In this document: positions 5,144-6,973 of the stretch, in pieces | How the letters are laid out: each line of letters begins with the position of its first letter | How positions within the stretch are numbered: position 1 is the first letter of the stretch | Assembly (NCBI RefSeq): GCF_004376175.1 | Contig: NZ_SNUY01000007.1 | Location: 1-32,000 of the forward strand | Direction of reading: 5' to 3' | Length of the DNA stretch: 32,000 nt | DNA from: Halalkalibacterium halodurans | GTDB taxonomy: Bacteria; Bacillota; Bacilli; Bacillales; Bacillaceae_D | Position numbers and translations under genes: made by a program | Notes under the pieces: generated by a model | The model's database searches: none | What the model was told of the DNA's origin: nothing | Seen by the model: the letters and a program-made list of their open reading frames with translations, nothing else

Positions 5144-5863
5144 TCAGGAATCATCAACCGTGATAGCATTTCGACTTCCAATGTTTACTATATGTTTAGC
5201 TAAAAGGAGAATAGGATCAATTACTTCAATTCCCATTTTCTCTGTATCCATTACTAAACTTAGCTCGGTACAACCAGCAATAATCGCTTTAACATTGGCC
5301 TTTTTCAATTTTTTCACAAGTTCTTTTAAAGCAACCGATATTCCATAAGAAGTATTTCCAGACTTAATTCCATTTTCTCCATAAATAATTTCCATCAATT
5401 TCTTTTGATCTTTCTCTTCTGGAACAACAATTTCATTTGAAATGTATTCTTCAAAAACACCCGATTTAACCGATCCATCTGTAGCCATGAGCCCAATCCT
5501 TGTTTCAGAAGAAAAGAGATCCCTTAGATGTAATTCTACAAGTTCAATTGCATTCACAATTGGAATAGGTGATTTCTGCTTTAATTCAGAGATAAATGCA
5601 TGAGCTGTCATACACGGGATAACTGCAACATCAGCACCTGCGTAAAATAACTTATGCAAATTCTCAGTGAGCCTGGGAACTGGGCTTGTCCCTTTACCAA
5701 AAATATAATTTGTTCGATCTGGTATTTGAGGATCGTTTATTATAATCATATTTACATGATCTTGATCCATTTCGACAGAGGTATTTGTAATAACCCTATT
5801 AAATAACTCGGCTGTTGCAGCTGGCCCCATTCCACCTAAAACGCCAATTACTTTTGGAGACAT
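5144..5863 (-). CDS. Asp/Glu/hydantoin-racemase family protein, aspartate-racemase-like
   Basis: The 239-aa ORF carries VIGVLGGMGPAAT, the first Cys motif IPCMTAH and the second Cys motif AGCTELS. This is the two-cysteine PLP-independent racemase pattern. AAAGGA lies upstream of the ATG. Confidence 0.85.
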   Translation of the reverse strand: MSPKVIGVLGGMGPAATAELFNRVITNTSVEMDQDHVNMIIINDPQIPDRTNYIFGKGTSPVPRLTENLHKLFYAGADVAVIPCMTAHAFISELKQKSPIPIVNAIELVELHLRDLFSSETRIGLMATDGSVKSGVFEEYISNEIVVPEEKDQKKLMEIIYGENGIKSGNTSYGISVALKELVKKLKKANVKAIIAGCTELSLVMDTEKMGIEVIDPILLLAKHIVNIGSRNAITVDDS

Positions 5864-5914
5864 TGTCCGACCATCCTTTTAAAGCATCAATTTGTACGGT
5901 ATTCAACCTATACC

Positions 5915-6973
5915 TTAATCTATCTCTAAATCCTTTATTTCTTTGCGCATTCTACTTATAACATCATTATATACTTCCTTGGATGAAAACTTCCCATGAT
6001 CGGTTTCAATATATTCATTTTCTTGAATCCAATCCTTAAATAAATAAATTCCATATTGCAGCCTTTCTTCTCTTTTCGTAAAAGTTAGGCTGTATTTCGG
6101 ACTTTTTATAACAATACCTTTATAATTTTCATCTGGTTTATTAATTTCTAGTGTTAAGGACGCACCAATTTGTCTGTGCAAGCCATTCTGACCAGAAATA
6201 AAATTTCCTAAAGAATACGCTACAAATGTTTTTGTTCCCCGTGAGTTTTCGATCCATTCAGGAGGTTGTAGAACATGAGGGTGATGACCAATAATCACAT
6301 CTGCGCCTGCATCAGATAGTGACGCTGCAAGCTCTTTCTGTTCTGCGCAAGGATCCAGATGGTATTCCTTCCCAAAATGCATATTAACAACAATAACGTC
6401 CGCTAAATTTTCTTTTTTTATTCTTCTTAATTCTTTTGTTAGCTTTAATGCGCTTGTTTTCTTGAGTGAATTTACTAAGTAAGGTTTATTGTCAGGTATT
6501 TTTATACCGTTCGTCCCTTTAGTATAAGATATAAAACAGATCTTCAAGCCGTTCTTATTGAATATACGCAACCTTTGTTTATCCTCTAAGGATTTATACG
6601 CGCCATCGTATTCTAAGCCTATTCTCTCTAGATTCTCTATGGTTTTCAATAACCCTTCTTCTCCCCGATCTAGAACATGGTTATTAGCAAGTGTCACAAG
6701 GTTCACACCCATATCTTTTAGCGCATAACCAATTTCTACGGGTGCGTTGAACTTTGGAAAAGAAGAAAGTCCTATCTCAATCCCAGCAATAATCGTCTCT
6801 AAATTAGCAACTGTAAGATCCGTCTTTCCTAACAAGTCTTTCACTCTCTCGAATTTCCCCAAGAAATTATATCCGGACTTCTTCTTTATTCCTCCATACA
6901 CTCTCCCGTGTAAGAGTACATCACCAATTGCTGTTAAAGTCACTGTTTTGCCTTTGCTAATTTTCAAAATCAT
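5915..6973 (-). CDS. CapA/PgsA-family (PGA_cap, metallophosphoesterase-fold) protein, apparently without a membrane anchor
   Basis: Motifs seen: TAIGDVLLHGRVY, LANNHVLD, VNMHFGKEY, IIGHHPHVLQP, AYSLGNF. The start is ambiguous (TTG 6988, ATG 6973 or TTG 6967). No hydrophobic N-terminal segment is present in any of these versions. Confidence 0.7.
   Translation of the reverse strand: MILKISKGKTVTLTAIGDVLLHGRVYGGIKKKSGYNFLGKFERVKDLLGKTDLTVANLETIIAGIEIGLSSFPKFNAPVEIGYALKDMGVNLVTLANNHVLDRGEEGLLKTIENLERIGLEYDGAYKSLEDKQRLRIFNKNGLKICFISYTKGTNGIKIPDNKPYLVNSLKKTSALKLTKELRRIKKENLADVIVVNMHFGKEYHLDPCAEQKELAASLSDAGADVIIGHHPHVLQPPEWIENSRGTKTFVAYSLGNFISGQNGLHRQIGASLTLEINKPDENYKGIVIKSPKYSLTFTKREERLQYGIYLFKDWIQENEYIETDHGKFSSKEVYNDVISRMRKEIKDLEID

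Follow-up and report, generated by a model that had tools for sequence, protein, structure and literature searches.

A soluble CapA-like protein coupled to ATP-grasp ligases in the teichuronopeptide locus of Halalkalibacterium halodurans, a candidate tailoring enzyme of a wall peptide

A stretch of 32,000 nucleotides of Halalkalibacterium halodurans (assembly GCF_004376175.1, contig NZ_SNUY01000007.1, positions 1 to 32,000), hereafter the window, was analysed around a gene for a CapA-like protein without a membrane anchor (5915-6973), which lies next to a racemase gene and among genes for ATP-grasp ligases. Judged by sequence identity, the window is the known teichuronopeptide (tup) cell-wall polymer locus of this species, since its TupA was 99% identical to that of H. 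halodurans CP040441 and 11.7 kb of DNA (8781-20438) was 98.9% identical to that strain, while the exporter and the glycosyltransferases shared 90% clusters with proteins of strain C-125. Window proteins also matched H. halodurans entries, either exactly or at 90% identity and above. The teichuronopeptide (TUP) of C-125 consists of polyglucuronate to which an acidic polypeptide or poly-gamma-L-glutamate is bound, and tupA takes part in its synthesis (PMC8153356; PMC5938343), and an ATP-grasp synthetase for the polyglutamate of H. halodurans has been postulated in a review (PMC3815933). All the genes between 2258 and 24579 lie on the minus strand, and their order in the direction of transcription is exporter, two dual-domain glycosyltransferases, TupA, three ligases with an acylphosphatase domain, CapA-like protein, racemase, a fourth ligase and a small fifth ligase. 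No convincing terminator was found on the minus strand from 2258 to 13657, and the CapA-like and racemase genes are co-directional and only 51 nt apart. The main features are the following:

5915..6973, minus strand: CapA/PGA_cap-family putative metalloenzyme (PF09587), 352 aa, cytoplasmic, without membrane anchor
5144..5863, minus strand: two-cysteine racemase of the aspartate-racemase type, independent of pyridoxal phosphate (C84, C198; PF01177, TIGR00035)
2258..3370, minus strand: small ATP-grasp ligase, 370 aa, without acylphosphatase domain or tail motif (NCBIfam cyanophycin synthetase, E-value 1.2e-62)
3536..5143, minus strand: ATP-grasp ligase with a degenerate acylphosphatase domain and a coiled-coil tail with SWKVTKPLR (NCBIfam cyanophycin synthetase, E-value 9e-68; Pfam RimK and Acylphosphatase)
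7100..8731, minus strand: ATP-grasp ligase with an acylphosphatase domain keeping both catalytic motifs (VQGVGYR, GYTKN), in the strain-specific cassette
8780..10438, minus strand: ATP-grasp ligase with an acylphosphatase domain, catalytic Arg replaced by His, 97% identical to its CP040441 counterpart
10513..12231, minus strand: ATP-grasp ligase with an acylphosphatase domain, catalytic Arg replaced by His, 99% identical to its CP040441 counterpart
12179..13657, minus strand: TupA, ATP-grasp amidoligase and namesake of PF14305 and of the locus (PF14305, E-value 1.3e-94)
13671-16403 and 16321-18882, minus strand: two large dual-domain glycosyltransferases (GT2-GT1), TuaG-related, found upstream of TupA in all related loci
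18884..21301, minus strand: TagH/TagG-like ATP-binding cassette (ABC) exporter, composed of the ATPase (18884-20488) and the ABC-2 permease (20504-21301)
28401..29315, plus strand: LytR-CpsA-Psr (LCP) family protein (PF03816, E-value 1.9e-53)

The CapA-like product matched the Pfam PGA_cap profile over its full extent (profile positions 1-255 of 255; E-value 5.6e-72, 242.7 bits against a cut-off of 27), and the motifs G17-D18, N97-N98-H99, H199-F-G-K-E203 and G229-H-H-P-H233 were located in it, in agreement with the family membership and motifs claimed by an earlier note made from the letters of this sequence. In alignments, the motif set GD, NxE, NNH..D, HxGxEY and GHHPH was common to this protein, to CapA from the Bacillus anthracis plasmid pXO2, to membrane-anchored paralogues and to PGA_cap domains fused to other proteins, the residues D18, E59, N98, H99, D102, H199 and H233 being invariant across soluble, anchored, canonical and TupA-fused forms. 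The missing anchor, likewise proposed beforehand, was borne out as well: no hydrophobic segment occurs anywhere in the protein, the highest 19-residue Kyte-Doolittle mean being 1.21, and none of the start variants (6988, 6973 and 6967) adds a transmembrane helix. The longest possible start is TTG 6988, with two in-frame stop codons 8 codons upstream, and the 111-nt gap between this gene and the upstream one holds no other hydrophobic open reading frame (ORF). A missed upstream start or a frameshift hiding a transmembrane helix was thereby ruled out. Public gene calls of the identical sequence begin at ATG 6973 (352 aa) or TTG 6967 (350 aa, WP_243854896.1) or give a 348-aa form, and an anchor appears in none of them. 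Furthermore, a hydrophobic N-terminus was absent from all of the 120 closest homologues (48-100% identity, median length 351 aa), which come from halo- and alkaliphilic Bacillales, so the lack of an anchor is a property of the clade and not the result of a mis-called start.

The genomic surroundings of such anchor-less proteins were then compared. Neither a scan of the genome collection with the single CapA-like sequence nor a scan of metagenomes with a single TupA sequence returned relatives, and alignments were used as queries instead. The genome scan with an alignment gave 80 loci, of which seven (L008-L014) encoded proteins without an N-terminal extension and 73 encoded proteins with one; together with L002, L005-L007, L089, L090, L092, L093 and the window, the anchor-less set amounted to 16 loci. 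In the first 11 of these, the gene always adjoined ligases resembling the G domain of cyanophycin synthetase (CphA-G-like), and TupA and glycosyltransferases were present within 10 kb in 10 of them, the eleventh (L014) being cut by a contig end. Over the whole set, the soluble CapA stood beside the ligases in 16 of 16 loci, with TupA within reach in 15. Moreover, two kinds of gene fusion were found. Single ORFs of 718-745 aa with an anchor-less N-terminal PGA_cap domain followed by TupA, confirmed with Pfam, occurred on six metagenomic contigs (L117, L121, L124, L125, L126 and L130; for instance, L124:7114-9330), where they sit among ligases of the same type. The other kind joins an N-terminal CphA-G-like ligase to a PGA_cap domain and was represented by P0289 (L161:869-3544; 891 aa), the top match in a library of 1.8 billion proteins, and by P0306 (837 aa), which belongs to a different lineage. 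Chance adjacency of the CapA-like and ligase genes was ruled out by the synteny and the fusions, and the tie to ATP-grasp ligases asserted in the earlier note was thus upheld by a co-occurrence check (16 of 16 loci plus both fusion kinds). From the synteny and the gene fusions, the CapA-like protein is predicted to share its substrate with TupA and the ligases. On the other hand, the gene was absent from at least three tup-like loci (L091, L095 and L096/L105), which do have the ligases, and this absence ruled out an obligatory core enzyme. Being coupled to the ligases yet dispensable in some tup-like loci, the protein would be an optional tailoring enzyme. The fusion gene of L130 is surrounded by CphA-G-like ligases, TagF-like glycerophosphotransferases, a TagO/MraY-type GT4 glycosyltransferase and an LCP protein, and from this kind of context the same peptide machinery may also decorate a polymer of the teichoic-acid type.

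The partners of canonical CapA were searched for with CapA, CapB, CapC, CapD and CapE of pXO2 as the reference set. While pXO2 CapA found the CapA-like gene in the window (E-value 1e-30, 31% identity), a six-frame tblastn search of the window with CapB, CapC, CapD and CapE gave nothing better than an E-value of 3, which ruled out pgsB or pgsC elsewhere in it. Pfam scans of 22 ORFs together with the truncated gene at 3-2015, a set that includes all plausible genes down to 100 aa, detected no Mur-type ligase and no member of the CapC family in the window. Neither pgsB nor pgsC was found within 10 kb at the same locus of CP040441, and CapB, CapC and CapE were all missing from the 16 loci with a soluble CapA; according to a review, pgs and cap operons are both lacking in the genome of this species (as B. 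halodurans; PMC3815933). The description of a soluble CapA-like protein without PgsB or PgsC partners was consequently sustained, both in the window and within 10 kb in CP040441. In Bacillaceae, a CapA-family protein normally occurs without PgsBC, as none of the 73 loci encoding an extended protein had capB or capC; these loci also lacked TupA and ATP-grasp ligases, many of them lay beside plsY, and 67 of the 73 proteins reached 19-residue Kyte-Doolittle maxima of 1.5 or more. Most of the sampled Bacillaceae genomes carried such a stand-alone, membrane-anchored CapA-family gene, whose product was 35-51% identical to the window protein (L003, L015-L087). In a neighbour-joining tree, the soluble clade was monophyletic in 33 of 40 bootstraps, and pXO2 CapA, the one canonical sequence included, fell outside the group of soluble and anchored stand-alone proteins in 40 of 40. 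According to this tree, the nearest relatives of the soluble clade are the anchored stand-alone paralogues of Bacillales, and the clade would not derive from a pgsBCA system. It had been suggested that a soluble CapA was recruited to ATP-grasp ligases in place of PgsB; the recruitment is backed by synteny and fusions, whereas an origin from pgsBCA is contradicted by the tree.

All five ligases of the window are similar to the cyanophycin-synthetase G domain (NCBIfam CphA models, E-values from 1e-62 to 1e-68), and the ligase at 7100-8731 matched the structure of CphA1 (7LG5) with an E-value of 2.8e-41 over chain residues 214-482. The fourth ligase in the order of transcription (3536-5143), whose true start is likely ATG 5119, was 62% identical to the ligase following the racemase in L089 and 55% identical to the one following CapA in L092. 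For the ligase at 10513-12231, the annotated start is probably too early, the real one lying near 12156. Acylphosphatase domains are carried by the four larger, acyl-phosphate-forming ligases, although the catalytic Arg and Asn are both kept only in the one at 7100-8731; editing and binding of the chain end are two possible roles for these domains. A coiled coil followed by a motif of the type S-W-K-x-T-x-P-L-R-K was observed in four ligases (3592, 7153, 8857 and 10587), in TupA (13477) and in one glycosyltransferase (16175), located at the C-terminus in the ligases and in the N-terminal region in TupA and the glycosyltransferase. Nothing of the kind was seen in the CapA-like protein, in the racemase or in the small ligase at 2258-3370. 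Together, the coiled coil and the tail may be a common tag for assembly or membrane association.

The racemase at 5144-5863 was assigned with high scores to PF01177 (E-value 2.2e-34, 119.5 bits against a cut-off of 31) and to the aspartate racemase family TIGR00035 (186.2 bits against 93.1). It aligned over its full length with the aspartate racemase of Pyrococcus horikoshii (1JFL; E-value 2.9e-52), its C84 and C198 coinciding with the catalytic cysteines, which agrees with the two-cysteine Asp/Glu-family racemase that had been recognized there. The protein also exceeded the cut-off of the NF052483 equivalog for the 'cysteate racemase' CuyB (209 bits against 190). This score would favour a cysteate racemase or a general housekeeping racemase lying in the cassette by chance, as would its absence from 13 of the 16 loci with a soluble CapA. 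Nevertheless, the same name is given to proteins of the aspartate-racemase family from Pyrococcus (P0189 and P0226), so that the label does not discriminate and the automatic annotation looks over-specific; furthermore, the four examined homologues (at least 53% identity; the window, L089, L090 and L091) were all inside tup-like ligase operons, no genes for sulfonate metabolism were found nearby, and the stop codon of the racemase (5144-5146) directly adjoins the following ligase gene in its longest ORF form (TTG 5143), 24 nt before the likely ATG of that gene at 5119. There is thus little chance that the racemase is a bystander. All its close homologues (at least 53% identity) belong to the same bacterial group. 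It is encoded directly downstream of the CapA-like gene in the window, L089 and L090, while L091 (Oceanobacillus profundus) has the racemase without a CapA-like gene. Its absence from 13 of 16 loci ruled out a universal partner of the CapA-like protein and indicates that it marks a variant polymer rather than a general feature. The idea that the racemase points to D-residues in the product is reasonable. The only clear orthologue of the small ligase (2258-3370) was found in L089 (56% identity), the one further complete locus that has CapA and racemase together, which suggests that this ligase may be the user of the D-amino acid made by the racemase. Aspartic acid has been reported in wall polymers of alkaliphilic Bacillus (PMC8153356), and the racemase probably furnishes an extra ligase with a D-acidic amino acid, D-Asp being the likeliest. 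In L091 (10001-14789), three ligase genes come after the racemase, the second being of the Mur type (Mur_ligase_M and Mur_ligase_C) and the third Ddl-like, an arrangement that recalls the D-Ala-D-Ala/MurF logic by which peptidoglycan is made.

The distal part of the operon varies between strains. Homology to CP040441 ended at 8781, precisely where the ligase gene at 8780-10438 has its stop codon, and beyond this point (window 2258-8780) the extra ligase with the intact acylphosphatase, the CapA-like protein, the racemase and two further ligases are encoded. The CapA-like protein was only 52% identical to its CP040441 counterpart, in comparison with 74-75% (75-77% in BLASTP local alignments) to homologues from Virgibacillus and related metagenomic sequences. 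In addition, the G+C content was 34-36% over approximately 3-8 kb of the window and 40-47% beyond 10 kb. The peptide-tailoring cassette therefore looks to have been exchanged within the species by cassette replacement, as judged from these identities and the composition. Such replacement between strains suggests that the wall polymer behind growth at high pH is variable, perhaps through selection by phages or the environment.

As for the rest of the window, the longest ORFs overlap at 12179-12231 (ligase and TupA, 53 nt) and at 16321-16403 (the two glycosyltransferases, 83 nt); the true starts are probably internal at both places, the CP040441 counterparts beginning at the equivalent of about 12156. 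The exporter ATPase clustered at 90% with a C-125 protein called a teichoic-acid ABC transporter in one source, and the LCP protein (28401-29315) is the likely ligase for joining the polymer, once exported, to peptidoglycan. Beside the locus lies a tyrosine-kinase module of the capsule type, formed by a Wzz-like chain-length protein (27520-28218), a CpsD-like ATPase (26790-27506) and a CpsB tyrosine phosphatase of the PHP type (25995-26762), together with a GDSL-family protein on the plus strand (24991-25788). The minus-strand product at 3-2015 has at least eight PG_binding_1 repeats and is cut by the window's left edge, and the one at 29412-30686, also on the minus strand, is an NlpC/P60 hydrolase with three such repeats; related loci are also flanked by large PG_binding_1 amidases or glucosaminidases. 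No RNA families of Rfam were detected in the window.

Regarding the reaction, the CapA-like protein is possibly, with a little less than an even chance, a metal-dependent epimerase acting on the C-alpha of N-acylated residues with a free alpha-carboxylate, by analogy with MslH. Among solved structures, MslH was the only one related to it (phmmer E-value 5.8e-09, profile E-value 4.6e-17, Foldseek E-value 1.8e-15 with a TM-score of 0.61), and the NCBIfam model of MslH (NF038314) also matched (E-value 6.8e-13). The protein belongs to the PGA_cap/MslH branch of the calcineurin-like fold. MslH epimerises the C-terminal residue of a peptide in a Ca(II)-dependent manner, with the dyads His88/Asp91 and His295/Asp11 and the metal ligands Glu44, Asn87, His259 and His261 (PMC10406935). 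The equivalents of Glu44, Asn87, His88, Asp91, His259 and His295 did not vary between soluble, anchored, canonical and fused proteins. In particular, H99/D102 and H233 aligned directly with the dyads, and D18 corresponds to Asp11 by motif position only, as the profile search against the PDB did not align the N-terminus of MslH; at the Ca(II) ligand positions, E59, N98 and H199 are conserved, and the position of His261 is occupied by Gly201, with Glu203 two residues further on. An amino acid amide-linked to a uronic acid, the chain end activated by the ligases and every unit of gamma-polyglutamate would each resemble the C-terminal residue of a peptide, having an acylated amine and a free alpha-carboxylate, and for this reason a mechanism of the MslH type would fit the chemistry of TUP. 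Feng et al., who were the first to characterise MslH, proposed CapA as the epimerase of poly-gamma-glutamate (PGA) synthesis (PMC8179263), and no functional study of epimerisation by PgsA was found in the literature since 2019. Three relatives of 587-605 aa were fused to a VanY domain (two) or to a domain of the beta-lactamase family (one) (P0352, P0435 and P0299). VanY is a D-Ala-D-Ala carboxypeptidase acting on peptide C-termini with D-residues, as do some members of the beta-lactamase family. These fusions hint that the extracytoplasmic CapA paralogues act on wall peptides.

Several observations weigh against this proposal. The identity to MslH was approximately 16% in the structural alignment, the NF038314 score (47.8 bits) was far below the equivalog cut-off of 700, the AlphaFold2 model of the CapA-like protein had a mean pLDDT (predicted local distance difference test) of 83, and the loss of His261 to Gly is accompanied by His231 and the clade-specific His22, which could complete a second metal site of the kind seen in true phosphoesterases. 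Moreover, the polyglutamate of C-125 TUP is reported to be all-L, with a D ratio of 0% (PMC3815933), and strains of the CP040441 type carry a CapA-like gene in their tup locus; an epimerase of the bulk glutamate is therefore unlikely in such strains, where the only plausible target would be a minor or linker residue. There is also the known case of a TupA-like ligase, Cj1438C, that has a phosphatase, Cj1435, as its partner (PMC11800379). As for the genomic context, the fusion P0289 comes from a 3.7-kb contig with 4x coverage, and the pairing of the racemase with the small ligase rests on two loci.

In the main alternative, the CapA-like protein would be a metallophosphoesterase removing phosphate from an intermediate of the pathway, such as a phosphorylated amine or amino acid ligated by TupA to a uronic acid, in the way that Cj1435 acts behind Cj1438C, or hydrolysing a nucleotide- or pyrophosphate-linked carrier. 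It has the calcineurin-like fold, 5'-nucleotidases and purple acid phosphatases followed MslH in the Foldseek ranking (E-values from 1e-8 to 1e-4), a weak match to UshA was obtained (E-value 6e-4), and D18/H22, E59, N98-H99, H199 and H230/H231/H233 could in principle hold two metals. Furthermore, a TupA-like ligase that uses phosphorylated amines and is followed by a dedicated phosphatase has been described (PMC11800379), and the TupA fusion would suit a two-step enzyme that ligates and then dephosphorylates. The full two-metal ligand set of binuclear phosphoesterases comprises D-x-H in motif I and G-H-x-H in motif V, and the soluble clade has D18-x3-H22 for the former. However, conservation of the motif I His and of the leading His in motif V does not extend to the TupA-fused domains and canonical CapA, where H22, H230 and H231 are not kept in the alignment. 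In the literature searched, a demonstrated phosphoesterase activity was found for no member of PF09587, whose one characterised member is an epimerase. No gene for the synthesis of a phosphorylated amine was present in the window or in the fused-type loci L124 and L130, the chemistry of TUP (Glu on glucuronic acid) needs no removal of phosphate, and the ligases already carry acylphosphatase domains of their own, so that a separate acyl-phosphate hydrolase is not needed. Thus, the phosphoesterase acting on an activated intermediate, as the earlier note had it, is possible but not favoured, being rather unlikely, and an epimerase role of the MslH type is the better supported of the two.

Two further roles were considered. 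A non-catalytic, polymer-handling subunit, serving the ligases as scaffold, chain-release or chain-length factor, would agree with the tight linkage and the fusions, and PgsA has classically been regarded as such a component, of unknown function, of the membrane-bound PGA synthetase (PMC3815933; PMC8179263). It is nonetheless improbable: eleven active-site positions were invariant among proteins of 26-100% identity, fused domains included, which argues for catalysis; the CapA-like protein lacks the coiled coil and the SWKxTxPLRK tail common to the ligases, TupA and one glycosyltransferase; and it is dispensable in several tup-like loci with the same ligases. Even less probable is a hydrolase (amidase or carboxypeptidase) that trims or releases the peptide and so sets the chain length. 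The polyglutamate of TUP is short, below 20 kDa (PMC3815933), and the anchored relatives are fused to peptidase domains of the VanY and beta-lactamase families, but a fusion of this kind more naturally signals a complementary than a duplicate activity, and Pfam and NCBIfam scans revealed no sequence similarity of the CapA-like protein to any peptidase family. To our knowledge, amide hydrolysis is not described for the calcineurin-like fold, which also speaks against a hydrolase.

Taking the epimerase as the preferred role, the best overall explanation, to which a rough probability of 0.45 is given, is that the CapA-like protein and the racemase are accessory tailoring genes in the tup locus, acting in the following pathway. 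The GT2-GT1 glycosyltransferases would, by homology, build a uronic-acid glycan, to whose sugar carboxylate TupA would join an amino acid through an amide bond, as might be expected from the characterised TupA-like Cj1438C. The paralogous CphA-G-like ligases would then extend an acidic peptide, phosphorylating the free carboxylate end and adding the next residue. On the residue newly attached by TupA, on the growing chain end or on any gamma-linked Glu unit, the CapA-like protein would bind the alpha-carboxylate through its metal while two His/Asp dyads, in analogy with MslH, remove and return the C-alpha proton, turning the L into the D form before or between ligation steps. The racemase would be an independent module, present in a minority of loci, that makes a D-acidic amino acid in free form for use by an additional ligase of its own, for which 2258-3370 is the best candidate; the strain of the window would accordingly make a variant teichuronopeptide. 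Finally, the TagGH-like ABC transporter would export the product, every step before it being cytoplasmic, and the LCP enzyme would attach the polymer to the wall. More broadly, and more tentatively still than the epimerase role, the anchor-less CapA clade and the ATP-grasp ligases might constitute an assembly line for wall peptides that ligates, epimerises and extends independently of ribosomes and non-ribosomal peptide synthetases, with the racemase cassette as a strain-exchanged D-Asp variant of TUP.

The role of CapA/PgsA in PGA synthesis has long been unresolved because PgsBCA is an unstable membrane assembly (PMC8179263). A soluble cytoplasmic homologue that keeps the catalytic residues offers a model of CapA function that can be purified and directly assayed as an epimerase or a phosphoesterase, and, should it be an epimerase, it would be the first CapA that is both soluble and tractable, and it could answer whether the long-sought epimerase of poly-gamma-glutamate synthesis is CapA/PgsA. 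Moreover, the tup locus gives candidates for the synthesis of the wall polyglutamate of H. halodurans, namely TupA, the acylphosphatase-fused CphA-G-like ligases and the CapA-like protein, and the fusions of PGA_cap to TupA and of ATP-grasp ligases to PGA_cap show which proteins are to be reconstituted together.

Among known systems, the tup locus of C-125 is the same locus in the same species; in CP040441, the extra ligase with the intact acylphosphatase, the racemase and the small ligase are absent. CapA/PgsA of the PgsBCA(E) and CapBCA(DE) systems (B. subtilis and B. anthracis pXO2) belongs to the same family, PF09587, with 31% identity over the catalytic domain, and both it and the CapA-like protein are linked to the synthesis of an acidic poly-amino-acid polymer of the surface. 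Nevertheless, pXO2 CapA is anchored (Kyte-Doolittle maximum of 2.57 at residues 25-43, in contrast to the 1.21 of the CapA-like protein), its domain would face outwards according to the positive-inside rule while the CapA-like protein would be cytoplasmic, and its partners are the Mur-type ligase PgsB and PgsC instead of ATP-grasp ligases and TupA. The lasso-peptide C-terminal Trp epimerase MslH (PDB 8GQ9 and 8ITG), the best match in structure and sequence among solved structures, is like the CapA-like protein soluble and cytoplasmic, and the proposed substrate shares the acylated amine and the free alpha-carboxylate; on the other hand, MslH is longer (440 vs. 352 aa), lasso-peptide genes do not lie near the CapA-like gene, and the ribosomal precursor that MslH acts on would be replaced by a ligase-made wall peptide. 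In Campylobacter jejuni, Cj1438C of the HS:2 capsule is a TupA-family ligase that amidates the C6 carboxylate of glucuronic acid and has a dedicated follow-up enzyme, Cj1435 (PMC11800379), but its amine is serinol-phosphate or ethanolamine-phosphate and no peptide extension takes place, unlike in the tup proposal. The racemase differs from that of P. horikoshii (1JFL) in being embedded in a wall-polymer ligase operon of an alkaliphile of the Bacillales. Lastly, the G domain of CphA1 and the ATP-grasp domain of GshAB imply for the ligases the phosphorylation of the carboxylate end of a peptide followed by attack of the incoming amino acid; the window ligases lack the N and M (Mur-ligase) domains of CphA1, have a C-terminal acylphosphatase domain, coiled coil and SWKxTxPLRK tail instead and, unlike CphA1, occur as several paralogues per locus.

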